The translations under genes and the position numbers were made by a program. From the NCBI GenBank assembly GCA_963828715.1, contig CAWHFX010000018.1:9178-73177 (forward strand): a DNA stretch of 64,000 bases, written 5' to 3'. Below, one piece after another: positions 8,168 to 58,885 of the stretch (positions within the stretch are counted from its first letter, which is position 1; every line of letters begins with the position of its first letter). A model generated the notes under the pieces. It did not search any database, was not told the origin of the DNA, and saw nothing but the letters and a program-made list of their open reading frames with translations. The DNA is from an uncultured beta proteobacterium (GTDB lineage Bacteria; Pseudomonadota; Gammaproteobacteria; Burkholderiales; SG8-41).

Positions 8168-8290
8168 TACGGAGTGCACGGAACGAGATCAACACGGAGT
8201 CACGGGGGCACGGAGGGTAACTACTTTGGGTTTCTCCGTGGCTCCGCGTCTCCGTGTTGATCTTGTCCCGTGTGCTCCGTAACCTCCGTC
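8168..8290. repeat. Long imperfect palindrome built of CACGGAG/CTCCGTG units (hairpin downstream of the NlpC/P60 gene)
   Basis: The left arm tacggagtgcacggaacgagatcaacacggag... pairs with the reverse complement of ...ctccgtgttgatcttgtcccgtgtgctccgtaacctccgtc. The core AGATCAACACGGAG / CTCCGTGTTGATCT is a perfect 14-bp inverted repeat. Confidence 0.75.
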
Positions 8291-8844: not shown

Positions 8845-9052
8845 GTCGACCTACTTCCCGGAGAGGCAGATTGTGCGGATCGCGAAACGACGCTGGGCAA
8901 AACGAGCGCCAGCACGGCGCCGCGGCAAATCGCACGCCGACACACCGATCGGAATTGATCCCGTGCCGACGAGCTGTCCGGTACGGCGGACGCCAGGCAC
9001 ACTCGTGGTGACACTCTCTGGTGACCGGGCGACGCTCGCACTATCCTGAAGT

Positions 9053-24794: not shown

Positions 24795-24929
24795 CAATCG
24801 CTGATCACTGATCACTGATCCTGAATCGCTGATCGTGGCATCCCTGATCCTTGAATCGCAGAATCCACTCGAGGATTCGAGGATTCAAGGATCCAGTGAT
24901 TCACGGATTCACGGATGAGAGATTCGCGA
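24795..24929. repeat. Satellite-like 7-8-bp-unit repeat block forming a long imperfect hairpin between convergent genes
   Basis: ctgatcactgatcactgatcctgaatcgctgatc ... gaggattcgaggattcaaggatccagtgattcacggattcacggatgagagattcgcgatcagtgatcagggattagtgatt. The left and right halves are partly reverse-complementary. Confidence 0.75.
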
Positions 24930-43150: not shown

Positions 43151-43400
43151 CGGCTGGCGAAGCGACCTCGATCCCGAGATAGCCCGACGCGCCGGCGCGG
43201 TTCTCAATCACTACCGTCTGCCCAAGTTGTTTAGCAAGCTTCAGCTCGACGATGCGCGCCACGAAGTCCGACGCGCCGCCCGGTGCAAACGGCACGATCA
43301 TCCTGATCGGCCTGTTCGGGTACTCGTCAGCAGCGAAGGCACTGGCGACCGCGGCGGGCAGAAGCAGCGCCAGGAACGAATTACGCAACCTGCCTGACAT
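43150..43400 (-). pseudogene. 5' fragment of a Bug/TctC-family periplasmic binding protein
   Basis: [83 protein letters not shown], then loss of similarity at about 43150. Full-length paralogs in this window are about 320 aa. Confidence 0.7.
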
Positions 43401-43442
43401 TGCGACTCTCCTCACGTCTTTAGTCCACGCCGGTGTGCGCAG

Positions 43443-44417
43443 CTATTGCTGCTGGGCTATTCCCAGGTCATGTACCACCTTCGCCCATCTCACCCGCTCG
43501 GCCTTCATGTATGCAGCAGCCTTGTCGGCCGACATCACGTAAAGCTGAAAGCCGTTATTCAGGATCCGCTTCTGCGTCTCGGGCTGCGCGAGCACCTCTG
43601 CGAGCGCCCTGCGAAGCCGCCGCAGCACGTGTCGCGGCGCACCGGCGTTCGTGCACAAACCCTGCCATGAGACGACCTCGAAGTCAGGCATTCCCGACTC
43701 CGCCAAGGTCGGCACGTCCGGCAACTGCGGATCGCGCTGCTTGGATGTCACGACCAGCGCCCGGACCTTGCCGCTGCGCGCCAGAGACAGCACCGAGGGG
43801 ACCGTCGAAGTCATGACCTGGACACGGCCTGCCATGAGATCGAGCTGTGCTGGCCCGACACCTTTGTAAGGGACGTGGACGAGATCGATGCCGGCCTGCA
43901 TCGTGAAGAGCTCCATCGAGAGCTGCGGTGAGGTGCCCACGCCGCCTGAAGCGTAGTTGAGCTTGCCGGGGTTTGCCTTCGCAAGCTCGATCAGTTGCCC
44001 GATGGTGGTAGCCTGAACCGATGGATTCACGCTGAAAGCGTTGGGATTGTTCGCGATCAGGCCGAGCGAGGCGAAATCGCGCTCGGGGTCGTAGCTCAGG
44101 TTCTTGTAAAGTGCGGGGCCAACCGCGAGCGACGCGATATTGCAGCTCAGGAGCGTGTACCCGTCCGGCGCCGCACGCGCTGCGATCTCGGCGCCCACGG
44201 TGTTGCCGGCGCCGGAACGATTGTCGACGACGATCTGCACCCCGAGGATCTCTGAGAGGGGCGGCGCTATGGTGCGGCCGACGAGGTCGGACGCGCCGCC
44301 CGGACCCGTTGCCACGATGTAGCGTATCGGCTTGGTCGGATACTCCGGAGCTGCGGCCGAGACGTTACCAATGAACGTCAGCAATGCTGTGACAGCAACA
44401 AAGCACAGGCTTCTCAT
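43443..44417 (-). CDS. Bug/TctC-family tripartite tricarboxylate transporter substrate-binding protein
   Basis: Start MRSLCFVAVTALL at 44417. YPTKPIRYIVATGPGGASDLVGR...VVDNRSGAGNTVGAEIAARAAPDGYTLL... matches the family. Confidence 0.88.
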   Translation of the reverse strand: MRSLCFVAVTALLTFIGNVSAAAPEYPTKPIRYIVATGPGGASDLVGRTIAPPLSEILGVQIVVDNRSGAGNTVGAEIAARAAPDGYTLLSCNIASLAVGPALYKNLSYDPERDFASLGLIANNPNAFSVNPSVQATTIGQLIELAKANPGKLNYASGGVGTSPQLSMELFTMQAGIDLVHVPYKGVGPAQLDLMAGRVQVMTSTVPSVLSLARSGKVRALVVTSKQRDPQLPDVPTLAESGMPDFEVVSWQGLCTNAGAPRHVLRRLRRALAEVLAQPETQKRILNNGFQLYVMSADKAAAYMKAERVRWAKVVHDLGIAQQQ

Positions 44418-44555
44418 CGTCGGTCCTCCTTTGTCGTCGAAGATGTCAAACGTTGCACGAGCGTATGAAATCAATGAGCAGCTCGGGTGCGAGAGCACTG
44501 TCACGATTACTGCATGGGTGCACTCCACACAGCCGATGCCGGCGCGATGCTCGCA

Positions 44556-45515
44556 TCAACCCTCCTGCTCGATGTGCGAATCCCTCATTACCCGCCGCCA
44601 CTTGTCGATGTCCGCCTTTATGCGCTCACCAAACCGTTCGGGAGGCCCACCGGCCAGATCCAGACCTTCACCGCGCGTACGTTCTTTCATCTCTGCCGTG
44701 AGCAACACTTTCGCAACTTCCTTGTTCCACCGAATGACGACATCCCGCCGCACTCCCTTCGGACCCCAGATGCCATACCAATGGCTGACTTCGTAACCCG
44801 GAACGGTCTCGCCGATCGTCGGCACGTCAGGCAACGCTGGTGACCGCTTCGCCGGTGTGATCGCCAGTATTCGCACCCTGCCTGCTCGTGCATGCGGGAT
44901 GGTCGGCACCATGCTGGTCATGCTTGTCTGGATCTCGCCAGCCATAAGCGCATTCAATGCCGGCCCGGCGCCCTTGTATGGAACGTGAACGATGTTCGTG
45001 TCAGTCGAAAGCTTGAAAAGCTCAAAAGAAAGATGCACGGCGCTGCCTGGGCCCACCGATGCATAGTTGAGCTGGCCTGGACTCGATTTCGCGAGCTTGA
45101 TCAACTCGCCCGTCGTCTTGGCAGGCACTGAAGGATTGATCGTCAGCGCGAGGCCAGTCGTCCCGATCAGGATGACGGGTTGAATATCCCGAACGGGGTC
45201 GAACGCCAATCTCCGATAAGCCCCGGTCGCTGCATAGCTGGCGGACACCAAGATGAACGTATAGCCGTCAGGCTCAGCCCGTGCGGTGATCTCCGCCCCG
45301 AAGGCGCCGCCCGCACCAGGCCGGTTGTCCACCAAGACCGTCTGGCGGAAAGCTTCCGACAGCGGAACTGCGATGGTTCGGCCAAGCATGTCTGTACCAC
45401 CGCCCGGTGGAAACGGCGCGATCAGGCGTATCGGTTTCGTCGGATATGTGTCCGACCAGGCGCTGGTCGTCCCGAGGCAAACGGCAGCAGCCGCGACCAA
45501 CGCAGCGGTCTTCAT
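44556..45515 (-). CDS. Bug/TctC-family substrate-binding protein
   Basis: Start MKTAALVAAAAV at 45515. YPTKPIRLIAPFPPGGGTDMLGR...VDNRPGAGGAFGAEITARAEPDGYTFIL. Confidence 0.88.
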   Translation of the reverse strand: MKTAALVAAAAVCLGTTSAWSDTYPTKPIRLIAPFPPGGGTDMLGRTIAVPLSEAFRQTVLVDNRPGAGGAFGAEITARAEPDGYTFILVSASYAATGAYRRLAFDPVRDIQPVILIGTTGLALTINPSVPAKTTGELIKLAKSSPGQLNYASVGPGSAVHLSFELFKLSTDTNIVHVPYKGAGPALNALMAGEIQTSMTSMVPTIPHARAGRVRILAITPAKRSPALPDVPTIGETVPGYEVSHWYGIWGPKGVRRDVVIRWNKEVAKVLLTAEMKERTRGEGLDLAGGPPERFGERIKADIDKWRRVMRDSHIEQEG

Positions 45516-46423
45516 CGGCTCTTCTCCTCGCGCAAGAGCAACGCTCTCAGCAGGCACTCGTCAGCTTGTCCAGCTTGTTGTAGTCACAGTCCGGAGCGGG
45601 TAACCGGATCCACGATATAGACCGGGGATACCGGCGCAAACTTACTGCGGCCGTCCTGGTGTCTCAGATAAATGCCGTCCCCGCGCTCTTTTGTCGTACG
45701 GTCGCCGTCGTCCTGCCTCATGACTAAGACCGCGGCTTTCAGATCGGCCTTACTTCAGTAAGCGGCCGCAGCGAGGGAATCACGACCTACTCTCAGATTC
45801 CGCAGGGACACGGAATGGGGCACGTTGATGCCGGTCAATGTTTTGAAGACTCGAAGGCGAGATGGACCCCCTTTCGAATGCCGGCTCGTCTGGCTCTGCT
45901 ATCGCGAGGCGTACGAGTTTCTTGATTGCCGTCCGTCGGCAACCAGCATTGGAATTACAGCGAGTTCCTCACTGCCGCGATCACATGGACATCTCGCGAA
46001 TGACTCTCGTTTGGGGCGCATATCGTCGCGACCCGGGGCGGAAAGTCCAGCGCCGAGCAAGTAACGTCGAGTTCAAAATTTACAGCCCGGGTTGGTGCAT
46101 AGCCGTAAGGACATGCATTTGTTGCTGGCGCGCTGTGTCCATGATGCCTTCGTCATCTGCCGCAAGCACATCAGTCTCCGCAATGAAAGCATGCAGCCAA
46201 CAGTGAGCTCAAGTTATCGCAACATGTTGTTCGAGGCGCGATTGGCTGCGGAACATCGCATGCAGGTTACGATCGAGCCGAAAGAAGTAAATCAAGCACT
46301 ACTCAGGTGCTTTCAGCGCGCGAGCGCTAATCGTGTAAGGAAATAGCAGGTCATCCGGTCTAATCGCGATGGAGCGCGTTAGCTCCGAACCACGAAGTCC
46401 TTTCTCCTCTTGAAATGCCCTCA

Positions 46424-46448
46424 GGCCCGGCGCGTCCGGGCCTTTTTT
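46424..46448 (+). terminator. Rho-independent terminator
   Basis: GGCCCGG-cgcgt-CCGGGCC followed by TTTTTT. No convincing ORF ends just upstream. Confidence 0.75.
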
Positions 46449-46569
46449 GGGGAAGTCTTACGAAGGCAGATCGTTAAGCGAAGCTTACATCGCAGTCGCA
46501 CCCGAATCAGTATATTCGCCGAAACTCAGGCGATCGTTAGCGTCAGCCGATTAGCCCAGGATACGTTTC

Positions 46570-47154
46570 ATGGATAACTTGATCGAAGCGGTCCCTGCGT
46601 CAGCTTTACAGTGCAGGCCGGCTGAGTCCAGCGATTCCAGGAGTCATGGCATGGCCAATCCGAGTAAGACGGCATTCGAAGGACTGGTCCGGGCCTATTC
46701 GTCTGAGCTTTACCGTTTCGCATACTGGCTCACCAGAGACCGGTTTTCCGCCGAGGATCTGGTGCAAGAAACGTTCGCACGAGCATGGAGCGCCTGGCAA
46801 TCCCTTCGCGAGCAGGGCGCGGCAAAGAGTTGGCTTTACATGATTCTGCGTAACGAGCATGCGCGCCTGTTTGAACGCAGACGGTTGGACATCGTCGAGG
46901 ACCAGGATCTCGATGCCCTTGAGGACCAGCGGATTGCTGCCCCCTTCGACGATATCGAAATTCGCGAAGCGTTGCATGCCTTGCCTGCGGCGTACCGAGA
47001 ACCCTTGCTATTGCAGCTCCTCGGTGGGTTCAGTTGTGACGAAATAGCGCGGCTCATGAATCTCACGTCAGGCGCCGTAATGACGCGCTTGTGTCGCGCA
47101 CGTCTAACGCTTCGTCGCAGCAGAGTCGCTGCGGAAAGGAATGTGAACCCATGA
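46570..47154 (+). CDS. ECF (sigma-70 family group IV) sigma factor
   Basis: Region 2 YRFAYWLTRDRFSAEDLVQETFARAW and region 4 EPLLLQLLGGFSCDEIARLMNLTSGAVMTRLCRAR. Alternative start MANPSK at 46651. The stop overlaps the anti-sigma start (ATGA). Confidence 0.88.
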   Translation: MDNLIEAVPASALQCRPAESSDSRSHGMANPSKTAFEGLVRAYSSELYRFAYWLTRDRFSAEDLVQETFARAWSAWQSLREQGAAKSWLYMILRNEHARLFERRRLDIVEDQDLDALEDQRIAAPFDDIEIREALHALPAAYREPLLLQLLGGFSCDEIARLMNLTSGAVMTRLCRARLTLRRSRVAAERNVNP

Positions 47155-47855
47155 ACTGTTTGCAATCCAGACGAGCTTTGCTTGCGGTCCCGCGCGAGCA
47201 ATCCGATGAGCATTGGGCCCACCTCCAAGAGTGTCAGTCCTGCTCGCAGTCACAACAGAGGCTCACAGACCTTGACAGATACATCGAGGAGGCTGCTCTC
47301 GTGCCGGTGCCCGACGCGCTCGTGCACCGCATTCTTCTGCCCCGGCGTATGCAGCCCGTCTCCCGCTGGGCGCTGGCCGCGAGCATGGCCATTGTGATGG
47401 CATCGATTCCGCTGGTCGCTGGGGAGGTAGTCGATGCTGTGGTTTTCTGGAGTACCACTCAAACCGTTTCTCCTACTCATCCCGCGCTAGCAGCGATCGC
47501 GGAGGTTGCCGAGGAAGCGCTGTCGCCGGCTGGCCGGCCAGCGTCTGATGTAGGGGTCGAACAGTCACTCAACCGTATCGGATTGGCGATAAAGGCAGGC
47601 GACGCTCATGTCGAATACGTCGGCAAGTGTCACATTGAGGCGAATCGGGATTGCGATCGCATCGCACTCAGCGCACCCGGCGCGCAGGCAAATGTGATGC
47701 TGATCCCGAACTACAGCGCCGGGGACCGCCTGCTGGTTCAAGACGGGCAGATGGTTGCATTGATGAGCTCTGCGCAGAACGGTACATACATAGTCGTCGC
47801 GACTAACCGAAAGGCAGCCCGGCGCATCGAAAAAATGCTTGTCAGGAGAGGTTAA
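47151..47855 (+). CDS. Anti-sigma factor (DUF3379-like: zinc-finger-type N-terminus, one TM, periplasmic domain)
   Basis: MNCLQSRRALLA...HLQECQSCSQ, a TM segment (WALAASMAIVMASIPLVAG), and translational coupling to the ECF sigma gene. Confidence 0.75.
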   Translation: MNCLQSRRALLAVPREQSDEHWAHLQECQSCSQSQQRLTDLDRYIEEAALVPVPDALVHRILLPRRMQPVSRWALAASMAIVMASIPLVAGEVVDAVVFWSTTQTVSPTHPALAAIAEVAEEALSPAGRPASDVGVEQSLNRIGLAIKAGDAHVEYVGKCHIEANRDCDRIALSAPGAQANVMLIPNYSAGDRLLVQDGQMVALMSSAQNGTYIVVATNRKAARRIEKMLVRRG

Positions 47856-47876
47856 TAAGGTGTGTTTACTGCGGGC
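47782..47876 (+). repeat. Repeat A (3' end of anti-sigma gene); direct copy A' at 55573..55653
   Basis: Hand alignment of 81 nt gives 9 mismatches: gtacatacatagtcgtcgcgactaaccgaaaggcagcccggcgcatcgaaaaaatgcttgtcaggagaggttaataaggtg versus the copy at 55573. Confidence 0.85.
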
Positions 47877-47957
47877 TCTCCCTGGCCGGGTCTTCCGACC
47901 ACTGCCGCGGTCACCCTCTGAATGTGGACTCGTGCGAATCGTGAAGGGCTTCAGAAC

Positions 47958-48251
47958 TCATCGCGACAGGGTCGCCTTTCGGCGCAAGTAAGTCCATAGG
48001 TCCGGCAGCAGGTGTCGCAGCATCCTGCGTACACTTCTGGGGAGGGAAAGCTGTTTCCGCAGCAGCACGCGTGCGGAAAGTCCCTCAGGTACACGCACGG
48101 CCATGGCAGCATCACGGATTTCGCACTCGAGCCGGACCAGATCCGCAGCAACGCTGCCGCACGTGTCACAGTGCGCCGTATGTGCGCGCACGTCGACCGA
48201 ATCCGTGAATGGGGCGACGTGCAGCGAGCGCTGTACATTGCGACAGTTCAT
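47958..48251 (-). pseudogene. Inverted N-terminal fragment of a second DUF3379-like anti-sigma factor
   Basis: MNCRNVQRSLHVAPFTDSVDVRAHTAHCDTCGSVAADLVRLECEIRDAAMAVRVPEGLSARVLL aligns with MNCLQSRRALLAVPREQSDEHWAHLQECQSCSQSQQRLTDLDRYIEEAALVPVPDALVHRILL. No TM or periplasmic part follows, and no intact sigma gene lies upstream. Confidence 0.55.
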
Positions 48252-48765
48252 AACGAACTGAAAGACCGAAGATCGGCTTGAGTACTTACAGTGGTACCCG
48301 TTGTGGCGCTGGATCGGCATCGGATCGACCGTGCGGTTCATCTCCCACCGCTTCGGTTGTCTTCGTCAATGTTCTGCGCGCCTGAAAGCGGCGACCCTGC
48401 TCTGAGGACTACGACGCCGGCCGACAACTCGGCGGTTGCATCCATCCGAATTGCATTTTCGTCCGCCTCCCGCCGCGTATGTCACCCGTGTATCGCAGTG
48501 TGACGTCGATACATTTTGATACACGCTCGTCTTTGATTTTTATCAAGTTCGCAGCTTCCACCAACTCGAACGCGGTCGTACATTTTCGCTAAGCGAACCG
48601 TTGACCCGTCTGCTCGGTTCGGAAGCGCACCTCCAACTACGGGATCGTCGTGGACGCCAAACTGCTGACCGCCATTGTTGCTGGACGGTAGAGCGGCGGT
48701 CCCCTTGCTGAAGGACGGCAAGACTGAACGTGATCTCGCTTTTAGGCGTGGGAAAAGGAGATGCC

Positions 48766-49137
48766 ATGGCAAAGAGTTACAGGGCAACGACCTCGAACAT
48801 CTCGCGGCAGATGGCCAAACTGCGCGCTGATATACCGGACACCATGAGCGGTTTCAGCGCGATGGCGAGAGCCGCGACGCGTCCGGGAACGCTGGACACC
48901 AAAACCAAGGAGCTCATCGCACTTGCGCTGGGCGTCGCTGCACATTGTGATGGCTGCATCGGATTTCACATGCAGGCTTTGATGAAAGCAGGTGCTTCGC
49001 GTGCCGAGATTACCGAGGCATTGGCAATGGCGGTCTACATGGGTGGCGGACCGTCGGTCATGTATGCGGCCGAAGCGATGAGCGCCTACGACGAGCTTTC
49101 CGCGCCCGACGCGGGGAAGACAGCCGCTGCGGCATAG
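48766..49137 (+). CDS. Carboxymuconolactone decarboxylase (AhpD-like) family protein
   Basis: GGAG 6 nt upstream of the ATG. LDTKTKELIALALGVAAHCDGCIGFHMQALMKAGASRAEITEAL carries the AhpD-like CxxC motif. Confidence 0.85.
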   Translation: MAKSYRATTSNISRQMAKLRADIPDTMSGFSAMARAATRPGTLDTKTKELIALALGVAAHCDGCIGFHMQALMKAGASRAEITEALAMAVYMGGGPSVMYAAEAMSAYDELSAPDAGKTAAAA

Positions 49138-49261
49138 GCAGGCGGATCGTCGCTTAGAATACAGTGCGGCAGGAAGTTGCCGCAGGGTTCGAATACGCAG
49201 TCGATCGGCGCACTGTTTCGAGTCTCGGGCAGTTTCATCACTCGCAATGGGAGTCAAACGC

Positions 49262-50491
49262 ATGTCGATAGAGACGAATGCCACTCGCCGACGGTTTATG
49301 ACCGGCGGCACGTATGCTCTGGCCCTCGCTGCCGGAGGGCGATTCACACGTATGGCGAATGCGCAGGCGCCGACCCTTGAGCTGCCGATCGCCAATGGCA
49401 AGCGCAACCTGGTGGCCTATCCCGAGAAACGCCCGTTGATCGTGCTCACGTCACGCCCGCCGCAGCTGGAAACACCATTCGAAGTCTTCAACGAGGGCGC
49501 GATTACACCCAACGATGCATTCTTCGTCCGCTATCACAACGCGGCGATTCCGACGGCAATCGACGCGGACAAGCACGTCATCAAGATCGGCGGAAACGCG
49601 GTCGGCAAGGCGTTCGAGCTCACCATGGCGGACTTGCGCACGAACTTCAAGCCCGTGGAGATCGTCGCGGTCAACCAGTGTTCGGGCAATAGCAGGGGCC
49701 TGTTTTCGCCGCGCGTAACCGGCGGGCAGCTGACGAACGGGGCTATGGGTAACGCGCGCTGGGTCGGCGTGCCATTGAAGGACGTTCTCGCTCGCGCAGA
49801 GCTCAAGGATTCGGCGCGCCAGGTCACGTTCGACGGCCTCGATCGGGCCGTGTTCGGCAGCGGCGATTTCGTCAAGGCGCTCGACGTAAACCACGCGCTC
49901 GACGGTGAAGTCATGCTGGCTTACCAGATGAACGGAGCGGATATACCAATGCTCAACGGCTATCCGGTCAAGCTGGTGGTGCCCGGCTACTACGGCACGT
50001 ATTGGGTCAAGCATCTCTCGGAGATCCAAGTGATCGATCATGTCTACCAGGGCTTCTGGATGAATCCTGCTTACCGGATACCGGACAACCCTTGTGCGTG
50101 CGTGGAACCGGGGACCACGCCGGCGGCGACGCGCCCGATCGGACGCTTCAACGTGCGCTCGTTCATCACGTCTCTTCAGGACGGTGCGCGCGTGCGTGCC
50201 GGCCAGCCGACGTCCGTCAAGGGCATTGCGTTCGACGCAGGACAGGGCATACGCGAGGTCGCCTATTCGCTCGATGGCGGGCAGACCTGGCGCGAAGCAA
50301 AACTCGGCGCCGATCTGGGGCGTTATTCGTTTCGCGAGTTCACGTTCGGCTTTACGCCGGAGAAGGGTACGTACGATCTGCGAGTACGTGCGTGGAACCG
50401 ATCGGGTCAGAGCCAGCCCATGGAAGCGTTATGGCAGCCTGCCGGCTACATGCGCAATGTCGTGGAAAAGGTCGTGGTCTCGGCTGCATGA
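49262..50491 (+). CDS. sorA: Sulfite dehydrogenase molybdopterin subunit (SorA-like, sulfite-oxidase family), Tat-exported
   Basis: Tat leader MSIETNATRRRFMTGG...ANA. Mo-cofactor cysteine context VNQCSGNSRG. C-terminal dimerisation domain. A small cytochrome c gene follows. Confidence 0.8.
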   Translation: MSIETNATRRRFMTGGTYALALAAGGRFTRMANAQAPTLELPIANGKRNLVAYPEKRPLIVLTSRPPQLETPFEVFNEGAITPNDAFFVRYHNAAIPTAIDADKHVIKIGGNAVGKAFELTMADLRTNFKPVEIVAVNQCSGNSRGLFSPRVTGGQLTNGAMGNARWVGVPLKDVLARAELKDSARQVTFDGLDRAVFGSGDFVKALDVNHALDGEVMLAYQMNGADIPMLNGYPVKLVVPGYYGTYWVKHLSEIQVIDHVYQGFWMNPAYRIPDNPCACVEPGTTPAATRPIGRFNVRSFITSLQDGARVRAGQPTSVKGIAFDAGQGIREVAYSLDGGQTWREAKLGADLGRYSFREFTFGFTPEKGTYDLRVRAWNRSGQSQPMEALWQPAGYMRNVVEKVVVSAA

Positions 50492-50501
50492 AGAGGAAGC
50501 G

Positions 50502-50834
50502 ATGAGTCCTCCATCGAGAATCTTGTTCGTCGCTGCGCTGCTGACAGCATGCACTGCACCGGCGATTTCAGCGCAGAAATCCATCACGTTGCCACCCGAC
50601 GGCGCTCAGCTTGTACCGAGCACGCTGTCGGGCTACAGCAAGGCACAGGCGAACTGCGTCGCGTGCCATTCCGCCGAATACATGCTCTATCAGCCGCCGA
50701 CTTCTTCCCGAGCTTACTGGGAAACCATGGTCAAGAGAATGAAGGCGGTCTTCAATGCGCCGATCGACGACTCAGACATGCCGGTCATCGTCGACTATCT
50801 CGTCAAGACGTACGGAAACGAGCAGCCGAAGTAA
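50502..50834 (+). CDS. sorB: Small monoheme cytochrome c subunit (SorB-like)
   Basis: Signal peptide MSPPSRILFVAALLTACTAPAISA, heme motif CVACHS, 110 aa. It starts 11 nt after sorA. Confidence 0.75.
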   Translation: MSPPSRILFVAALLTACTAPAISAQKSITLPPDGAQLVPSTLSGYSKAQANCVACHSAEYMLYQPPTSSRAYWETMVKRMKAVFNAPIDDSDMPVIVDYLVKTYGNEQPK

Positions 50835-50889
50835 GGCGGATTGAGCGATAGGGAGTTACGAGCCGGGCCGGAGTTCCAGCCGATAACTT

Positions 50890-50971
50890 CGGCTTACGCC
50901 ATCGCACGCTGCCGCTGTTCCTGCAAGGCGTACCAGCGCACGGCGATGTCCGCGATCGCCAAGAGATTGGA
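50890..50971 (-). repeat. Repeat C' (3'-end remnant of an MFS gene); direct copy C at 55659..55741
   Basis: ccgataacttcggcttacgccatcgcacgctgccgctgttcctgcaaggcgtaccagcgcacggcgatgtccgcgatcgcca differs from the copy at 55659 by 4 substitutions plus 1 indel over about 82 nt. On the minus strand it reads ...AIADIAVRWYALQEQRQRAMA*. Confidence 0.85.
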
Positions 50972-51106
50972 GCGCGGAATCGATCCTCACGTGGGCCTCT
51001 GCACTCCGCCGACTGGAGACGAAGAGCGCCACGCTCAGGCCCGCCGCCAGGAGCGGGACGGGCCCGGCGATGGGCCCCATTGCGATCATCCCTTCGGTGT
51101 CGGACC

Positions 51107-51919
51107 CTAGAAGAAGAGAGTTTCGGCGAACATCCCAATCGCGACTATGGCCGCGACCACGGCGAAGCCGATCTGCAGATGCGGCCCCGCTAGCCGTGCG
51201 GCGACCAGCCGGCCGCCAAGCATGCCGATCAGTCCGCCGGTAGTGAAGGGCACTGCCACCGGCCAATAAAACGTCCCCGCAAGTGCGCTCGTCACAACGC
51301 CGCTCGCGGATATCAGTGCGATTACCGCGAGAGAACTCGCTACGGTTGATCGCATATCCAGGTCGGTGAAGCGCTGCAGAGCGGGTACCAGGACAAAGCC
51401 CCCGCCAACTCCCAACAGTCCCGACAGAAGCCCGCTGAGTCCGCCCGATAGAGCCAACGCACGCGCACATCTTGTCGTCCAGATGAATCGTCTGCTAGCG
51501 GCACTGCGTACGCACGCCCGAGTCGGCGCCTTCACCTGATGGGCGCCTGCTAGTGGGTCTTTGGCCTGGCGAAAGGTTCTGTAAGCGACCAGCAACAGGA
51601 CGAGAGCGAACAGCACACCGAGCCAGCCTTCATCGGTTTGATGCGCGAGCCACAGTCCGACCGGGGCGAGCGCCATGCCGGCAGAGGCGATCAGCACCGA
51701 GGCCTTGTACCGAACGATACCGGCCCTGAGCCCGAGGGCTGCCCCGAGCGCCGCGGCCATGCCAACGGCGAGCATCGCGATGGGGGCGGCTTGCGGCAAG
51801 CTAAGATGTGCGCCAAAGACCCGCAGGGGCACGGCGAGGATGCCGCCACCGGCGCCGGTGAGCGCAAGAATAAGCCCAACAAGAAGGCCCAGAGACGAAC
51901 TGATCATCATCGACGACAT
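51107..51919 (-). CDS. TauE/SafE-family sulfite/sulfonate exporter (DUF81)
   Basis: 270-aa polytopic membrane protein. LALTGAGGGILAVPL and a second-half repeat GLLGVGGGFVLVPAL are typical of TauE/SafE. Confidence 0.8.
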   Translation of the reverse strand: MSSMMISSSLGLLVGLILALTGAGGGILAVPLRVFGAHLSLPQAAPIAMLAVGMAAALGAALGLRAGIVRYKASVLIASAGMALAPVGLWLAHQTDEGWLGVLFALVLLLVAYRTFRQAKDPLAGAHQVKAPTRACVRSAASRRFIWTTRCARALALSGGLSGLLSGLLGVGGGFVLVPALQRFTDLDMRSTVASSLAVIALISASGVVTSALAGTFYWPVAVPFTTGGLIGMLGGRLVAARLAGPHLQIGFAVVAAIVAIGMFAETLFF

Positions 51920-52395
51920 TGGCGGGAAGGGCTGCGCTTGAACTTCAGCAGCCTAAGAAGCCTTGCGGCTACGCTTACCCGCAGCCGTTGCTGCTCCACA
52001 AACTCGAATGTTGCCATCCCTGCGAGCAGCGCAATGATGAAAACGAGCGGCTTCACGCCTCCAGTCAGCAGCGCTGCCAGCACCGGGCCCGGACAGTAGC
52101 CCCCAAGGCCCCAGCCGATACCGAACAGCACCCCACCCAAGACGAGCCTGCCATCGATTTGCGTCGTCGTGGGCAAACGCATGACCTCGCCAAGCAGAGT
52201 CCTCGTGCGCTTGGCCGCGAGCGCGAACGCGAACGTTCCGACGGCTATCCCGCCGACCATGACCATGGCGAGCGATGGGTCCCATGCGCCCGCCAAGTCC
52301 AGAAACGCGAGCACCTTCGATGGATCGGTCATACCGGATACGATCAAGCCGATGCCGAAGACGAGCCCTGCCACCAACGCCATGAATGCGCGCAT
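51907..52395 (-). CDS. YeeE/YedE-family sulfur-transport membrane protein (small half-size form)
   Basis: GIGLIVSGMTDPSKVLAFLD and GIGWGLGGYCPGP motifs. Confidence 0.75.
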   Translation of the reverse strand: MRAFMALVAGLVFGIGLIVSGMTDPSKVLAFLDLAGAWDPSLAMVMVGGIAVGTFAFALAAKRTRTLLGEVMRLPTTTQIDGRLVLGGVLFGIGWGLGGYCPGPVLAALLTGGVKPLVFIIALLAGMATFEFVEQQRLRVSVAARLLRLLKFKRSPSRQCRR

Positions 52396-52401
52396 AAAGC
52401 G

Positions 52402-52836
52402 TCACCAGCTTAAAACGTGACGGGTGATGTATACCGTCGCGAAACCTGCCAACATGAAAGACGCCACCGCGACAAGTGAGCGCGGCGAGCGTCGCGACAG
52501 TCCGCACACGCCATGTCCGCTTGTGCATCCCGAGCCGTATCGCGTGCCGATCCCGACCAGCAGCCCGGCTGCGACAAGGGTGACGTAGTCAGCGTCTATA
52601 CGCACTTCCGGCAGCGGCGCCGCGAGGGCATAGATCAGCGGCGATCCGATCAAACCCACCAGGAAGCTCATGCGCCAGAACCGGTCGCCGCTTGCGGCTC
52701 GAAGCATGCCTCCAAGGATGCCGCTGATCCCTGCTATCCGGCCGTTAAACAGAATGAACAAACCGGATGCGACGCCGATGAGCAACCCCCCGAAGAGGGA
52801 GAACCAAGGCGTGAAGTTCGGCCAGTCTATAGTCAT
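52402..52836 (-). CDS. YeeE/YedE-family sulfur-transport membrane protein (small half-size form)
   Basis: [11 protein letters not shown] and [21 protein letters not shown] (conserved Cys motif). It pairs with 51907..52395. Confidence 0.8.
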
Positions 52837-52892
52837 ATCTTCCCGCCCTTAGCGCCGGCGTGGCAGATGGACGGTGTACTCGCGCGCCATCG

Positions 52893-53190
52893 TCAGGCCT
52901 GCGGGCTCTCATACATTTGCCGACAGTACCGCTGCAAATCCGCATCGAGATCCGGCGGGCACACACCGCATTGGCGGTCGCCCGGCACGGCGTAATCGAT
53001 GAACTTCGGATAAGGGAGTTTCAACTCGCCCATGATCTCGAGAAAGTCGTCGAGGCTCCTTTCGCCGCCTGCTCGGCGTGAATGTGCGTGTCGACTGTGT
53101 AGACGAGCTTCAGCCCAAGCTGGTTAGCGAGCTTCAGATCACGCTGCCACGTCGGCATCACCGGATCGATCAGCGCCGCCACGAGCTCCA
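52893..53190 (-). pseudogene. Metallo-beta-lactamase-fold (persulfide-dioxygenase-like) gene remnant with a large internal deletion and a frame change
   Basis: N-terminal piece [35 protein letters not shown] stops inside the HxHxDH motif. The C-terminal piece [32 protein letters not shown]...* is in another frame ending at 52893. The catalytic core between them is missing. Confidence 0.65.
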
Positions 53191-53644
53191 TCACTTCCGC
53201 GAGACGCCGTCCGTACATGCCGAAGACGAAGGCTCTGAACGGCGGAAATTCCAATATGAGCTTCTGGAAGAGCGCCGGCGGAACGCGAGCAACCGTTACG
53301 TTTTCTTCGGCAATAGCCGACGCGCAGTACGTCGAATCTCCGAGGAGGCAACCGCCGGAGAGGATACATCCCTGTCCCGGCTCCACGCGATAGAGGACGA
53401 TCTCGCGACCGTTAGGCGCGATCTTCGTCACGCGCACAGTACCGTCGAGAAGCAGTGGAAAACCGTGGCAAGGCTGGTCAACGTTGAAGACCGTGGAGCC
53501 CTGAGGCACCTCCATGAACTGCACTTCCCCAAGCAGAGCTTCGAGTTGGTCTGAACGCAAGCTCGCGAAAAACGGAAAGCGCGCCAGAAGTAGCAGTCGA
53601 AATCGCTCTGCGCTCACTGTCTCGGCTCCTCGTGTGCTGCACAC
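53190..53644 (-). pseudogene. cNMP-binding (Crp/Fnr-like) domain without HTH, fused in frame to the MBL remnant
   Basis: [73 protein letters not shown]... is a Crp-type effector domain. The ORF then runs straight into MBL sequence instead of a DNA-binding domain. Confidence 0.6.
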
Positions 53645-53672
53645 CGCGAACGGAGGCAGCGCGCCGCGCCGC

Positions 53673-53876
53673 TTAAGTCCGCGATAGCGGCTGCTTCAGC
53701 TTGTAAAACTCCGCATTCAGGTAAGCCAGGACGTCCGCCACGCCCTGGTCCGTCAGCTTGTGGTCCCGAAATGTTGGGCCTTTACGTAACGGTACTCTGC
53801 TACCGATCAGCAGCACGATTGCGCCTGGCGGAAAATTGAGCCGATCGGCGACCGCTCTCGAGTTCGGAGGAATCAA
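53673..53876 (-). pseudogene. Possible C-terminal fragment of a c-type cytochrome
   Basis: Ends ...KLTDQGVADVLAYLNAEFYKL, resembling cytochrome c C-termini. No CxxCH motif is present in the 67-aa ORF or just upstream. Confidence 0.3.
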
Positions 53877-54121
53877 AACGAGACCGGCTGGCGGCTCGAT
53901 CGGAGAGTTACATGTTATCAGGCAATACCGGGCTCGTATGATCGCAGTAGGCCGAACCCGATGTCCGCGGCGCCGACGCCCACGTATGAGTCGCGCGGCG
54001 CTCGTTTCGCAAGTTCGACTTCGTAGCGTTTCTTAGCGTGACGTGCCTGCATTTGGCGCCACGGTCTTCGGTGCCGCATTCGCTTCACCCGAGCCTGTGC
54101 GAGCCTGCCAGGCCGTGTTGC

Positions 54122-54358
54122 TTATTGCTGCAGCCAGCTTTCGACAGCAGCACGAGATGGAACACCACCGGCATGCACCACCTTCCCGTCGACCACGACC
54201 CCGGGCGTGGACATCAAACCATATGACACGATGTCACGGATATCGTCTATTTTGTCTAACCGGATCTCCGCATGCTCAACTATCGCGACGTCTTCGATCA
54301 GCTTGAGCGTTGCCTTGCACTTTGCACATCCCGTTCCCAGTACCTTAACGTGCTTCAT
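54122..54358 (-). CDS. Small thioredoxin-family redox-active disulfide protein
   Basis: 78 aa, MKHVKVLGTGCAKCKATLKLIE... with CxxC. This is the type usually paired with the DUF318/ArsP-like permease gene found immediately upstream. Confidence 0.8.
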   Translation of the reverse strand: MKHVKVLGTGCAKCKATLKLIEDVAIVEHAEIRLDKIDDIRDIVSYGLMSTPGVVVDGKVVHAGGVPSRAAVESWLQQ

Positions 54359-54415
54359 GGTTGCTCCTTGCGGTGTCCACGGGCTCGCGTCGCTCTCACA
54401 GTTCCCCGGCGTTCT

Positions 54416-55456
54416 TCACAAGAGAGCATTGAAGAGATATCCAACCATCAGGATACCCGTTGCGACCACGCCAACAAAAACGGCGATCAGCGGCGGCTTC
54501 AGTACCTTACGCAAAATGATCATCTCGGGAAGAGACAGGGCGACCACGGCCATCATGAACGTCAGTGCGGTGCCGAGCGCGGCGCCCTTGCTGATGAGCG
54601 CCTGAACGATGGGAATCACGCCCGCGGCATTGGAATACAACGGCACACCGATCAGTACCGCGGCCGGCACCGACCACCAGGCGTCTCGGCCCATTACCTC
54701 AGCCATGAAGTTTTCGGGCACGTAACCATGGATACCCGCACCTACTGCGATGCCAACGACGATATAAGGCCAGACCTTGCCTACGATGTCTTTCACGTGA
54801 GCCCTGCCGGCATTTATCCGCTCGCCCCAGGAGGGCGTCCCGTCGTCGCCACGTCCTGGTGTGGCGAAGCGAATTCCCTGCACCCAATCCTCTAGCTGGT
54901 CTTCCATGTCGATCTTGCCGATGATGATTCCTGCAGCGATGGCGATGACGAGTCCCACGCCGAGATAAAGTGCCGCAACCTTCCAGCCGAACATCGCAAA
55001 GAGCAGTGCGAGGGCAACTTCGTTCACCATTGGGGCGGAAATCAGGAATGAAAACGTCACGCCGAGTGGCACTCCTGCGGAGAGAAATCCGATAAAGAGC
55101 GGCACCGCCGAACAAGAGCAGAACGGCGTGACAATGCCCAATGCTGCGGCAAGGACGTTACCGACGCCTGTTCGTTTGCCCGAGAGCATGGCCCTCGTAA
55201 GCTCAGGTGAGACGAAGGTATGCACGATACCCATGGCGAACACGATCCCGGTCAGGAGCAGCAGGACTTTGGGGGTATCGTAAACAAAGAAATGCAGCGC
55301 CTCGCCCGCTTGGGTGCTGCGCGATAAGCCCGTGAGCACAAGCACCCTGTCGGCGAACGGCATCAGGCCTACATAAGTCGCGAGCCATGCCACGGCACTG
55401 AGCAGGACCCAACCCCAAGGTGCGCGGGGCGGCAGCGTTTGCATTAAAGCGGTCAC
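54416..55456 (-). CDS. DUF318/ArsP-like permease
   Basis: 346-aa polytopic protein with TPFCSCSAVPLFIGFLSAGVPLGVTFSFLISAPMVNE. Confidence 0.8.
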   Translation of the reverse strand: MTALMQTLPPRAPWGWVLLSAVAWLATYVGLMPFADRVLVLTGLSRSTQAGEALHFFVYDTPKVLLLLTGIVFAMGIVHTFVSPELTRAMLSGKRTGVGNVLAAALGIVTPFCSCSAVPLFIGFLSAGVPLGVTFSFLISAPMVNEVALALLFAMFGWKVAALYLGVGLVIAIAAGIIIGKIDMEDQLEDWVQGIRFATPGRGDDGTPSWGERINAGRAHVKDIVGKVWPYIVVGIAVGAGIHGYVPENFMAEVMGRDAWWSVPAAVLIGVPLYSNAAGVIPIVQALISKGAALGTALTFMMAVVALSLPEMIILRKVLKPPLIAVFVGVVATGILMVGYLFNALL

Positions 55457-55541
55457 GGTCGACTATGGCTCAAGCACCAGCTATCCGCTGAAGAGAGAAA
55501 GAAATGCTGACGCGGCCATGGACAGGGCGCCACGATGTGGA

Positions 55542-56849
55542 TCAGTTGCCGGCGAGGGTGACGAAATCGCGAGTACATACATAGTTGTCGCAAGTAATCC
55601 AAAGGCAGCCCGACGCATCGAAAAAATGCTTGTCATGAGAGGTTGATGAGGTGATTACCCGATAACTGCGGCTTACGCCATCGCACGCTGCCGCTGTTCC
55701 TGCAATGCGTACCAGCAGCACGGCAATGCCCGCGATCGCCACGAGGAGCAGCGAAACGTAATTGAGGAGCGTCCAACCGCTCGTCGTAACCAGGGCGCCG
55801 GAGGAGAACGAAGAAATCATCATCATGGCGAAGACGCAGAAATTAACGGCTCCCTGGGTCTTGTTCCTTTCCTCGGGCCGGTAGGCCTTGAGCGACAATG
55901 CGGTCCCTGCAGTGAAAAGGAAGTTCCAGCCGACGCCGAGGAGAAACAGCGAGAAGACGAAATGCATCACATGCGCACCTGACAGGGCCACGCCGATGCA
56001 CAGCAGATTGAGTGCTACGCCTGCGCACAGGATGCGAATCGCGCCGAACCGCTCGATCAGGTGCCCGGTAAAAAAGCCAGGGGCGAACATGCCAATTACG
56101 TGCCATTGAAGTACGACTGCTGCATCGTTGAACGCATGGCCCTGCAGCTTCATCGCGATGGGTGATGCAGCCATGAGCATGTTCATTACTCCGTAGCCGA
56201 GCGCAGCCGCGGTCGTGCTTACGATAAATACCGGTTGGCGCATGATCACGGAGAGCGGGCGTCCGCCGCTGGTTCGTGTCTTCTTCGAGGTGTCCGGCGG
56301 GAAGTCCACGAGCGATATCACGGCCGTACCCAGGAGTGCGATTGCTGCGAGCGTGGTGTAGGCGCCCGCGAACGGCACTTCGGTGAGGTGCTGCGTCCAT
56401 CGCGCGAGGTTCGGCCCTATCACTCCACCGATGATTCCGCCCGCAAGTACCATCGAGACGGCGCGCTCTCGATACTGCGGCGTCGCAAGTTCCGCCGCGG
56501 CGAACCGATACAACTGCCCGTTGGCGCTGTAGTAGCCGGCCACGAGGGTCGCTGTCACCAGTAGCCAGAAGTTCTTGGTCGTCGCAGCGTACGTCGCGAG
56601 CAACGCGGAGCCGATCGCCACTCCGAGCCCGATCTGGAATGAGACCTTGCGTCCCCAACGTGACTGCGTCCACGCCACGGGCCCGGTCGAGAGCGCACCT
56701 CCAATCACGTAGCCCATGATCGGTAAGGTCGCCATCCAGGCGTAGGGCGCCAGTGAAAGGCCAACCAATCCGTTGATCGCGACGAAAACGACGTTGTTGG
56801 TGAGAAATAGACCCTGGGCTGCAACCATCAGCCACAGATTGCGATTCAT
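55542..56849 (-). CDS. MFS transporter (12-TM type), probably with a 3'-terminal frameshift
   Basis: 435-aa ORF with many TM helices. Compared with remnant copy C', it has one extra base near 55715. This replaces a plausible end ...WYALQEQRQRAMA* (stop 55673..55675) with a 40-aa non-membrane tail reaching 55542. Confidence 0.8.
   Translation of the reverse strand: MNRNLWLMVAAQGLFLTNNVVFVAINGLVGLSLAPYAWMATLPIMGYVIGGALSTGPVAWTQSRWGRKVSFQIGLGVAIGSALLATYAATTKNFWLLVTATLVAGYYSANGQLYRFAAAELATPQYRERAVSMVLAGGIIGGVIGPNLARWTQHLTEVPFAGAYTTLAAIALLGTAVISLVDFPPDTSKKTRTSGGRPLSVIMRQPVFIVSTTAAALGYGVMNMLMAASPIAMKLQGHAFNDAAVVLQWHVIGMFAPGFFTGHLIERFGAIRILCAGVALNLLCIGVALSGAHVMHFVFSLFLLGVGWNFLFTAGTALSLKAYRPEERNKTQGAVNFCVFAMMMISSFSSGALVTTSGWTLLNYVSLLLVAIAGIAVLLVRIAGTAAACDGVSRSYRVITSSTSHDKHFFDASGCLWITCDNYVCTRDFVTLAGN
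55573..55653 (+). repeat. Repeat A' (remnant of an anti-sigma gene 3' end), contiguous with repeat C
   Basis: On the plus strand it translates to STYIVVASNPKAARRIEKMLVMRG*, versus GTYIVVATNRKAARRIEKMLVRRG* at the end of 47151..47855. It lies antisense within the extended tail of the MFS ORF. Confidence 0.85.
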
Positions 56850-57215: not shown

Positions 57216-57653
57216 TCAGCGGTTTGCTGCGCCGGACGGAGCACTCCCTTGATCCAAGCCGGCGCCGACTCCTGCGCCTCTTCCGGGCCCGCCACGGCCT
57301 CCGACGCCAGCGCACGGTTGGTCTGGAAGAGTGACACCCTTCTCCTTCGCGCGCCCCTGCATGGTGACGTGGTGTTCTGCACGGATCTGGTCACGTTCCG
57401 CTTGTGTCTTCGCGTTGCGCATCTTGTCACGGTATCCGGTGCGTTCCTCCGGCGTCATTAACTGCGACCCGTAGGTAGTGTCCCAAATTAGGACACTACC
57501 GACCCGTATATCTGCTGTTGGGGTTGGCTCTTTCCTTGCGCCTGGGTCTGGGGCCGCTGTATCTGGTCACTGGCTTGATCCGCTGCATAGCATCGTAAGT
57601 GGAAGCGAAACGCCGATCAGCAGGGCCGCCCACTGGATTCTTCGATTGAACAT
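57216..57653 (-). pseudogene. Periplasmic Gly-rich-tail protein with an in-frame TGA at codon 29
   Basis: MFNRRIQWAALLIGVSLPLTMLCSGSSQ-TGA(57567..57569)-PDTAAP...YGSQLMTPEERTGYRDKMRNAKTQAERDQIRAEHHVTMQGRAKEKGVTLPDQP... is all in one frame. The signal peptide is separated from the mature part by the stop. Confidence 0.6.
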
Positions 57654-57904
57654 GACCTATTCTCCTTGTCGCTCAGCCGACGGTAGCTCAGTTGTCATGT
57701 TCCCGCGGGGCAGTCCAGGTTGCGATGATCTGCGTCAGGTCGCGACATTCGGCGAGCACGCTCGTGTCCCCTCGGCGGGCCGTTGCTGGAACAGGCATGG
57801 TCCGACTCACCAAAGCTCAGAGCGCCCGGTGGAGCTTGTCGCCGTCCGTGTAAGGTTTGCTCGCCAATGCCGGTCTCATGCTGGGGTTGCTGAAAGGCAT
57901 AAAG

Positions 57905-58885
57905 ATGAAAGCCCATCCTCTCCTGCTCGTCCTGATGCTTATGGCCCTCGTCCGCGGAGCCGCAGCCGCGCCCGCCGAAGCAGTCAAGGACTACCCTCAA
58001 CGACCCGTGCGGCTGATGGTGCCGAATGCGCCAGGCAGCTCGGTGGATACGCTAAGCCGGATCGTCGCCACGAGTCTCTCTGAAGTTCTTGGGGAGCAGG
58101 TGGTCATAGACAACCGACCGGGTGCCGCCGGGGTAATTGCCATGGAAATCGCCAAGGACGCGACACCCGACGGCTACACCCTTATCAGTGCGACAACTGC
58201 AGCTTCTACCGTCGCGCGAATGTTGCAGAAAAATCCCACCTTCGATCCAGTCCGCGACTACGACTATGTGGTGCAGTTCGCTGAAACTCCGAACGTCCTC
58301 GTGGTGAATCCTTCTTTGCCCATCAAGTCGGTCAAGGACCTCATCGCCTACGCGAACAGCAAAAGCGGCGACTTTAGAATGGCCTCGGCGGGTGCGGGTT
58401 CCCAAAGCCATCTCTCAGGCGCCTTTTTCCAGCAGGCGGCAAAGATCCACTCGCTGCACGTGCCGTACAAAGGCGGTGGTGCGTCGGTCGCTGCTGTGAT
58501 CAGCGGTGAGTCCCACTGGACGCTCACGCCCGCGCCAGCCGTGATGTCGCACATCAGCTCGGGACGCCTGCGTGCGATTGCACATAGTCTGCCAAGGCCG
58601 TCGCCAGTGCTTACGAATATTCCGCCGATCGCCGAAACGATTCCGGGCTTCGACTACAGCGGCTGGCAGGGCTTCTTCTTCCCGCTCAATACGCCGAAAA
58701 TAATCATTCAGAAGATGCGCAATGCGGTCGTGCAAACGATGGGGCGGCCCGAAGTGCAGAAAGGCATGGCGCTTCAGGCAACCGCTATCGTAATCAGAGA
58801 TGCGGCAGAGTTCCGGAAGGTCGTGCAGGACTCGATGGAGAAGAACGCGAAGCTCGTGAAGAGCCTTGGACTTACCGCAAGTTGA
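57905..58885 (+). CDS. Bug/TctC-family substrate-binding protein
   Basis: Start MKAHPLLLVLMLMALVRGAAA at 57905. YPQRPVRLMVPNAPGSSVDTLSR...IDNRPGAAGVIAMEIAKDATPDGYTLI. Confidence 0.88.
   Translation: MKAHPLLLVLMLMALVRGAAAAPAEAVKDYPQRPVRLMVPNAPGSSVDTLSRIVATSLSEVLGEQVVIDNRPGAAGVIAMEIAKDATPDGYTLISATTAASTVARMLQKNPTFDPVRDYDYVVQFAETPNVLVVNPSLPIKSVKDLIAYANSKSGDFRMASAGAGSQSHLSGAFFQQAAKIHSLHVPYKGGGASVAAVISGESHWTLTPAPAVMSHISSGRLRAIAHSLPRPSPVLTNIPPIAETIPGFDYSGWQGFFFPLNTPKIIIQKMRNAVVQTMGRPEVQKGMALQATAIVIRDAAEFRKVVQDSMEKNAKLVKSLGLTAS

Follow-up and report, generated by a model that had tools for sequence, protein, structure and literature searches.

Integrase-dependent islands are known to carry att repeats derived from the 3' end of the target gene, and a Campbell-type single crossover or a tandem duplication is recognised by two direct-repeat pairs formed from two convergent gene ends, one copy of each being a truncated pseudogene. 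Homology-facilitated illegitimate recombination, described for natural transformation in Acinetobacter, S. pneumoniae and P. stutzeri, would leave a truncated resident gene end beside imported DNA. Features of these systems can be observed in a sulfur-related locus of the window, which here means the whole 64,000-nucleotide stretch of DNA from an uncultured betaproteobacterium that was analysed. In this locus, the 3' end of an anti-sigma gene (repeat A) and the 3' end of a major facilitator superfamily (MFS) transporter gene (repeat C) each recur as a short copy, A' and C', in the order A-X-C'-Y-A'-C, where segment X carries the genes of a predicted SorAB-type sulfite dehydrogenase and segment Y the genes from TauE to ArsP. 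The seams between these segments are old, decaying scars of past rearrangement and not the borders of an active mobile island.

Comparison of the region with itself returned precisely two repeat pairs, A/A' and C'/C, both in direct orientation, as listed below.

47782..47862, plus strand: repeat A, the 3' end of the anti-sigma gene, comprising its last 71 coding nucleotides (nt), the stop codon (47853-47855) and 7 nt downstream
50880..50965, minus strand: repeat C', an apparent relic of the MFS 3' end, with the authentic frame and a stop at 50894-50896
55573..55653, plus strand: repeat A', an apparent relic of the anti-sigma 3' end, with the frame kept and a stop at the equivalent position
55659..55745, minus strand: repeat C, the 3' end of the full-length MFS gene, with the ancestral stop at 55673-55675

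A and A' align over 81 nt without gaps, with 72 of the 81 positions identical (89%) and 9 mismatches (E = 5e-23 by BLASTN against the entire 64-kb window), which is the repeat that an earlier note on this DNA had aligned by hand. C' and C align over 86 and 87 nt, respectively, at 93% identity (E = 2e-29 in the same search). The note was right that this second repeat exists, but it starts at 50880 rather than 50890 and differs by 5 substitutions rather than 4, in addition to one indel of 1 nt. Both similarities are significant, so the objection foreseen in the note, that the copies might not be alike, does not apply. C and C' each consist of 14 nt of 3' flank, the ancestral MFS stop (TTA) and about 70 coding nt. 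The reading frame of C' ends ...WYALQEQRQRAMA, the authentic MFS frame, and its LLAIADIAVRWYALQEQRQRAMA agrees with the C-terminus of protein P0032; upstream of C', no MFS similarity was detected. Only 5 nt, ATTAC, separate the end of A' (55653) from the start of C (55659), and the two are contiguous as previously described, whereas A and C' are separated by the 3-kb segment X. All four repeat edges are sharp, since Smith-Waterman alignments of the flanks beyond them scored no better than shuffled controls. The same controls led to rejection of a C-like remnant directly after A, which a common ACTGCGG heptamer had brought up and whose score was not above theirs. Promoter and terminator scans gave nothing at the seams.

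The likeness to integrase-dependent islands lies in accessory cargo held between gene-end direct repeats and in strain-variable content. Unlike such islands, the locus has no integrase or space for one, no tRNA, no GC shift and no empty site that could be found, and its strain breakpoints lie elsewhere than at the repeats. Genes were assigned by Pfam scans of the substantive open reading frames (ORFs) at 46.5-57.2 kb, none of which carries a recombinase, integrase or transposase domain, and the unassigned gaps of 95-477 nt are too short for a recombinase gene. When these spacers were compared by tblastx with all fetched loci, orthologous sequence of the type seen in contig L053 was matched alone, with no hidden gene relics. 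The sole transposase seen belongs to another strain (L049) and stands outside the shared sequence. The window has a single tRNA, which lies at 31.6 kb and not at the site, and GC content is 0.57-0.65 inside and 0.54-0.65 in the flanks. At 89% and 93% identity the repeats do not form a near-identical att pair and are too diverged for current att sites. The PLSDB plasmids gave no match, either to 44-60 kb by megablast or to the anti-sigma protein by tblastn. None of the marks of an integrase-mediated island, that is, recombinase, att repeats, empty site, and a GC or tRNA signal, was found, and gene-end direct repeats are insufficient on their own to infer an integrative island.

The age of the seams is apparent from a second lineage, of which three assemblies each supplied one contig (L053, L054 and L062). 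In the orientation of the window, this lineage carries CMD, sorA, sorB and C' with equal edges, an equal 45-nt left spacer and an equal 76-nt right flank, followed by the YeeE and DUF6691 pair, an 84-nt piece of Crp and an internal 228-nt piece of ArsP. At its right seam stand the last ~13 nt of A', a spacer ATTRC, C, an intact MFS gene of 391 amino acids (aa) and a 102-aa gene (p56857 in the window); beyond the latter, the flank of L053 is syntenic and far more diverged. Since the C' and C edges are equal and the A' tail is retained in all three contigs, the seams C', A' and C were present in the common ancestor of both block lineages, and the arrangement is old and inherited. The losses in L053 comprise TauE, most of Crp and ArsP, all of the thioredoxin-like gene (Trx3) and most of A'. 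TauE is gone except for its first 10 nt, the survival of which shows that it was deleted in this lineage, and since the common ancestor the structure has been altered by deletion only. An arrangement shared by relatives, with no empty or partial sites, had been set against insertion in the earlier note, and this is largely what was found: L064, which is 99.6% identical to the window and covers sorA-sorB-C'-TauE, and the L053 lineage share the seams that they cover and differ only by deletions. A scan of Joint Genome Institute (JGI) metagenomes for the conserved core of C recovered L062 and L064 alone, plus two unrelated chance matches (L061 and L063).

The relative age of the repeats can be estimated from a four-way alignment of C, in which only one C/C' difference is common to both lineages, and private changes number 4-6 per C' and 1-2 per C. 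The single shared difference and the excess of private changes in C' suggest that C' is drifting neutrally and that the duplication is only slightly older than the split of the block lineages. The branch leading to A' carries 4 changes in 81 nt, close to the branch length of C', which fits a single event. A swap of C and C' between lineages, considered because the C' of L053 aligns with the C of the window without gaps, was discarded, as the four-way alignment shows independent 1-nt indels.

The unit that has moved between lineages is larger than the segment bounded by A and C. Synonymous divergence (dS) between the window and L053 is 0.05 for YeeE, 0.13 for DUF6691, 0.16 for sorA, 0.29 for sorB, 0.32 for CMD, 0.37 for the MFS gene and 0.54 for p56857, whereas in the syntenic right flank it reaches 1.31 for a LolA-like gene and is saturated for p58956. 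Leftward, the homology to L053 reaches no further than the CMD ribosome-binding site (~48754), and on the right, high-identity homology ends at 57238. Because dS is far lower inside than in the right flank, a segment of ~48.75-57.24 kb, including the MFS gene and both relics and excluding A, looks like the laterally exchanged unit. The left limit lies 76 nt from a breakpoint at 48678 in L049, an indel-rich contig at ~98% identity that is collinear with the window from 43157 to 48678, departs from it 90 nt ahead of CMD, enters 3.5 kb of unrelated sequence (L049 11530-15036) with an IS30-type transposase at L049 13491-14621, and then ends. Thus, lateral exchange and structural variation, both proposed earlier, have left their signs in the dS contrast, the strain deletions and the L049 breakpoint, but the strain and lineage breakpoints fall at 48.68-48.75 kb and 57.24 kb instead of at A and C, which had been taken as the island borders. 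Just beyond the right limit, window positions 57239-57499 (261 nt) are absent from L053 and contain an 80-aa ORF (MTPEERTGYRDKMRNAKTQAERDQIRAEHH...) and a perfect 9-bp hairpin, GTAGTGTCC-N7-GGACACTAC, at 57476-57500.

Within the exchanged block, segment Y appears to be under relaxed selection and in the course of being lost. This is suggested by a ratio of non-synonymous to synonymous divergence (dN/dS) of ~0.8 for YeeE against L053, by the destruction of Crp and MBL (metallo-beta-lactamase) in the window strain and by the lack of most of Y in L053. Some of the deletions in Y are polymorphic among near-identical strains. For example, L066 and L068 (99.7-100% identical) run past position 53179 into an intact Crp helix-turn-helix, whereas the window fuses Crp at about codon 155 to MBL; since these contigs are nearly identical to the window yet keep the helix-turn-helix, the Crp::MBL fusion is a very recent, strain-specific deletion. 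At L066 1-328, joined at window position 54395, a GC-rich response-regulator receiver fragment stands in place of ArsP beside Trx3. This fragment was set aside as a likely chimera or rare variant, given that five other contigs (L067, L069 and L071-L073) run from Trx to ArsP like the window.

It should be noted that the annotated MFS ORF of the window does not end at C. An extra cytosine near 55717, relative to L053, L054, L062 and C', shifts the last 13 codons out of frame, and the ORF runs on antisense through A' to 55542, giving 435 aa. The proteins of relatives have ~391 aa and end ...AVLWYALQEQRQRAMA, a tail that C' encodes in frame. The protein deposited for the 148-kb source contig is the 435-aa read-through form. 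The extra base may be genuine or may stem from an indel of the assembly, the window assembly being the sole window-type contig that covers the site. In a third sample, an L053-type MFS gene is cut by unrelated DNA after ~183 codons (L065 1618-2057, window equivalent 56301).

Regarding the origin of the arrangement, the favoured explanation, to which we would give about an even chance, is a duplicative recombination whose scar was then reduced by deletion. At the start, the sigma gene, the anti-sigma gene, a short DUF3379 ORF, CMD and sorAB would have stood in this order, with the MFS gene to their right. Duplicative homologous recombination would have joined two versions of the interval from anti-sigma to MFS, either through single-crossover integration of a circularised homologous segment or through an equivalent tandem duplication, and the TauE-to-ArsP operon (Y) would have been placed at the joint. 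Deletions would subsequently have trimmed the sigma gene and most of the anti-sigma gene, the second X and most of one MFS gene, leaving 81 nt and 87 nt with sharp edges. The block from CMD to p56857 (~48.75-57.24 kb) would later have been shared laterally between lineages and would now be decaying through further deletions. A' and C' are best explained as non-functional relics of a second anti-sigma 3' end and a second MFS 3' end; the duplication step itself, and the number and order of the deletions, are what we infer. The relics are gene ends in direct orientation with frames and stop codons intact, and their sharp edges are as expected of deletion endpoints. The topology of the locus agrees with the order that a single crossover or a tandem duplication, as invoked in the earlier note, would produce, A-X-C'-Y-A'-C being Campbell-like. 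In comparison with typical products of such events, the repeats here are only 81 and 87 nt long and 7-11% diverged, the left copy is split by X, and extra deletions have to be assumed.

A path of two steps, duplication and then deletion, is preferred because X is old beside A. In a third lineage, L047 and L048, with ~76% nucleotide identity across the stretch from sigma to the short ORF, the order in L047 is TctC, sigma, anti-sigma, a convergent short DUF3379 ORF (56% aa identity, collinear) and a CMD pseudogene. A and A' differ at 9 of 81 positions (11%), L047 and the A of the window at 18 of 81, and L047 and either copy by 21-22%; in the three-way comparison, 13 sites set L047 apart, 5 are private to A and 4 to A'. 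As L047 has the short ORF and CMD next to its anti-sigma gene yet is about twice as diverged, the adjacency of A and X is probably older than the split of A and A' under a rough clock, that is, with a roughly constant rate assumed over 81 nt. In that case, A'-C would be a secondary junction and not a preserved empty site. This runs counter to two claims of the earlier note, that A'C preserves a convergent anti-sigma/MFS junction and that X is cargo inserted beside A, since the short DUF3379 ORF and the CMD pseudogene already follow the anti-sigma gene in L047/L048. The 9 differences between A and A' were also weighed by hand as synonymous or non-synonymous, a small sample that mixes constrained and neutral branches and cannot discriminate between readings.

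Further support of a kind comes from L074, where TauE, Trx3, ArsP and ArsR lie on one strand, upstream of and divergent from sigma, anti-sigma, sorA and sorB. Y placed upstream of sigma would be the kind of second arrangement that duplication followed by deletion needs. Several points weigh against the favoured explanation, however. L074 has a sigma factor of only 35% identity and a partner that Pfam does not assign to DUF3379, so its synteny may be coincidence. No intermediate was found with a full second MFS gene, a second anti-sigma gene or a second X; no relative with an anti-sigma/MFS junction was recovered, nor was one with sorB directly convergent on a full MFS gene, only two lineages covering the seams. 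One duplication and two or three deletions are needed, which is not parsimonious. L047 and L053 may come from different genomes, and the full-length A' is found in the window assembly only. Finally, the three-taxon dating assumes a constant rate over 81 nt, and gene conversion between A and A' could make this pair look younger than it is.

The explanation put forward in the earlier note differs in the starting point. There, a circle carrying X, C', Y and a short homologue of A entered, by a single crossover, an empty site in which the anti-sigma and MFS genes converge. This yields precisely the order A-X-C'-Y-A'-C, and it is in keeping with the 5-nt distance between A' and C, with a cargo that is all sulfur-related and with the variability of the DNA to the right of ~48.7 kb in L049 and L053. 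We nevertheless regard insertion into an anti-sigma/MFS junction as unlikely, because the start of X follows the anti-sigma gene in L047 at roughly twice the divergence of A and A', and because the borders at which strains and lineages vary do not coincide with A or C. RecA is itself unlikely to have made a crossover in 81 nt of diverged homology, and no natural linear donor gives a circle whose anti-sigma and MFS content is just 81 and 87 nt. The empty site was searched for as the note had proposed, with thin sampling of close relatives. A DUF3379 gene was found near the MFS gene in none of 46 MFS-anchored loci from species-representative genomes (best match in the MFS scan of genome contigs, 83% aa identity), and an MFS gene was found downstream of the anti-sigma gene in none of five contexts (L047, L049, L050, L055 and L058). 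A degenerate pattern for an A end and a C end 30-60 nt apart matched the window only and no JGI metagenome contig. In the distant sigma-DUF3379 loci L055 and L058, the order TctC, sigma, anti-sigma is kept, with other genes downstream and without sorAB.

A second alternative avoids deletions altogether. By template switching during break repair, Y would have been taken up where the MFS 3' end, downstream of sorB, had broken, with an 87-nt target duplication giving C' and C and with an 81-nt templated insertion giving A', all in one event. Accordingly, the presence of X beside A, the closeness of A' to the A of the window, the similar branches of A' and C' and the sharp edges would all be accounted for, and the 5-nt filler between A' and C looks non-templated. 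However, the junction sequences that were read show no clear microhomology at the joints, where Y came from is left unexplained, and, to our knowledge, target duplications as long as ~87 nt and templated insertions are poorly documented in bacteria, which makes this event an improbable one.

Homology-facilitated illegitimate recombination offers a third route, in which a donor carrying Y, an anti-sigma gene or its relic, an MFS gene and p56857 would have been anchored at MFS/p56857, its other end joining 87 nt inside the resident MFS gene. C' would then be the resident relic, and A' and C would be derived from the donor. The climb of dS from 0.05-0.16 in the centre to 0.37-0.54 at MFS/p56857 and to at least 1.3 in the flank resembles a right-hand crossover near p56857, and suggests homologous exchange on the right side. 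It also suits this model that C' has the proper frame and the full-length gene a private frameshift. Still, the model differs from the known cases in requiring a donor with Y beside an anti-sigma end that abuts an MFS gene, an arrangement that was not observed, and the one shared C/C' change means that the donor and recipient MFS genes were near-identical. We regard this route, too, as unlikely.

A broader proposal, in our view very unlikely, is that the gene-end homologies act as recurrent docking sites independent of any recombinase, at which circularised segments from relatives would enter the anti-sigma and MFS 3' ends by RecA-dependent single crossover. If so, sulfur modules would be gained and lost in cassette fashion among related soil betaproteobacteria, and this traffic would also have left its footprints in the CMD pseudogene of L047 and in the 48.7-kb breakpoint zone. 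Least probable is an assembly artefact or chimeric metagenome-assembled contig, an idea raised by the metagenomic origin of the 148-kb contig and by the full A' and MFS frameshift that it alone carries, since L064 spans sorA-sorB-C'-TauE, the stretch from sigma to sorA is borne out by contigs of the same species, L050 (99.2%), L051 and L052 (both 100%), and that from A to sorB by L050 and a Logan contig (gene calls only, equal gene order through sorB), L066-L073 (99.7-100%) cover 53.2-55.3 kb, and three second-lineage assemblies carry C', C and the A' tail. Under duplication followed by deletional decay, the locus is an example of accessory-module shuffling in uncultured soil Burkholderiales, in which SorAB sulfite oxidation, TauE export, and YeeE/DUF6691 and ArsP/Trx3 transport would have been assembled by homologous and illegitimate recombination, traded as one block from lineage to lineage and subsequently worn down by deletions. 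The locus adds a further instance to a well-known kind of genome mosaicism and implies no new mechanism or gene family.

The genes and other features of the locus, outside the repeats, are as follows.

46570..47154, plus strand: extracytoplasmic function (ECF) sigma factor gene (Pfam Sigma70_r2 and Sigma70_r4_2), with TctC-sigma-DUF3379 synteny in L047, L055 and L058
47151..47855, plus strand: DUF3379 anti-sigma gene (PF11859, 4e-20), identical in L051 and L052
47958..48341, minus strand: short ORF with the N-terminal domain of DUF3379 alone (Pfam DUF3379 positions 1-75, E = 7e-5)
48678..48754, no strand: breakpoint zone just upstream of CMD, where L049 departs (48678) and homology with L053 begins (~48754)
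48766..49137, plus strand: CMD (AhpD-like) gene (PF02627, 9e-23)
49247..50491, plus strand: sorA, molybdopterin subunit of the predicted sulfite dehydrogenase (Oxidored_molyb, PF00174, and Mo-co_dimer, PF03404)
50502..50834, plus strand: sorB, cytochrome c subunit with a CVACH (CxxCH) motif and a weak Pfam Cytochrom_C match
51107..51919, minus strand: TauE/SafE sulfite exporter gene (PF01925, 1e-39)
51907..52395, minus strand: DUF6691 gene, a YedE-like half transporter (PF20398, 2e-61)
52402..52836, minus strand: YeeE/YedE half, Sulf_transp (PF04143)
53021..53644, minus strand: Crp::MBL fusion remnant of 207 aa, in which a Crp cNMP-binding domain (Pfam cNMP_binding) is joined at 53179/53178 to an N-terminal metallo-beta-lactamase fragment
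54122..54358, minus strand: small redox protein gene, Thioredoxin_3 (PF13192, 2e-22)
54416..55456, minus strand: ArsP_1-type permease gene (PF03773, 7e-74); the deposited call begins at 55444
55542..56849, minus strand: MFS transporter gene (Pfam MFS_1), 435 aa, deposited protein P0152
56857..57165, minus strand: conserved 102-aa gene (p56857) immediately upstream of MFS, with 89% aa identity in L053 and 84% in L006 at equal adjacency

Pfam thus recovers the short DUF3379 ORF, CMD, SorA and SorB in X, and TauE, DUF6691, the YeeE half, the Crp::MBL remnant, Thioredoxin_3 and ArsP_1 in Y, in line with the gene content read earlier from the letters, and this content supports the statement that nearly all of the cargo is sulfur-related. 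C', A', the Crp::MBL fusion and the frameshifted MFS tail could easily be mis-called as genes during annotation. The MBL part of the fusion remnant gives a weak alignment to the MBL motif region of L027. An RRRF twin-arginine motif is found at the N-terminus of SorA, homologues of which at 80-85% identity carry the name sulfite dehydrogenase in their sources, and sorB is annotated as a 110-aa gene in other assemblies. With the expected domains, the twin-arginine signal and an adjacent cytochrome, the pair is predicted to form a SorAB-type sulfite dehydrogenase.

Two groups of described systems are close to these genes in function. BigR/Blh-type sulfide-detoxification operons combine a regulator, an MBL sulfur dioxygenase, YeeE/YedE halves and TauE. 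Y shares with them the YeeE and DUF6691 halves, TauE, an MBL remnant and a regulator remnant, and by this analogy TauE, the half transporters and the MBL remnant resemble a sulfide- or sulfite-detoxification operon. It differs in that the regulator is of Crp type and not of ArsR type, the MBL is destroyed, and an ArsP permease and Trx3 are added. MBL, ArsR, YeeE, DUF6691 and MFS occur together in L027-type relatives. The second group concerns regulation: ECF sigma/anti-sigma pairs beside genes for sulfite-oxidising enzymes switch those genes on upon sulfite, as for sigE-sorAB in Starkeya novella and rpoE4-sorT in Sinorhizobium meliloti (PMC6527743). In the window and in L074, a sigma/anti-sigma pair is likewise located directly upstream of sorAB, and this adjacency suggests that the ECF pair may control sorAB by a similar logic. 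In contrast to the described loci, this one has an anti-sigma factor of the DUF3379 type and, between the pair and sorA, a convergent short DUF3379 ORF and CMD; the more distant L055 and L058 have the pair without sorAB.

The short DUF3379 ORF (window 47958-48341, L047 8757-9050) is convergent with the anti-sigma gene and occupies the equivalent place in L047/L048. It encodes a zinc-finger-like HxxxCxxC domain, and the ORF is kept at ~24% divergence; it may be a functional truncated anti-sigma paralogue rather than debris. In L047, frameshifted fragments of CMD (about codons 38-76) follow it at 9050-9484, and then an unrelated minus-strand gene. If L047 and L053 were one genome, a decayed resident CMD would be present there together with an intact imported one.

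The low-GC spacer of 1 kb that precedes the sigma gene, and that is not alignable with L047, contains a strong hairpin of terminator type at window 46423-46443 (8-bp stem with 7 GC pairs, and a T-run). Elsewhere in the window, TctC/Bug-family paralogues are many, with 66-70% mutual nucleotide similarity (4393-5196, 34968-35766, 37724-38313 and 40306-40904, and also 44556-45557 and 57857-58885). Self-BLAST additionally revealed two long imperfect palindromic self-matches, at 24794-24954 and 8168-8281, with 73-74% identity over 114-170 nt.

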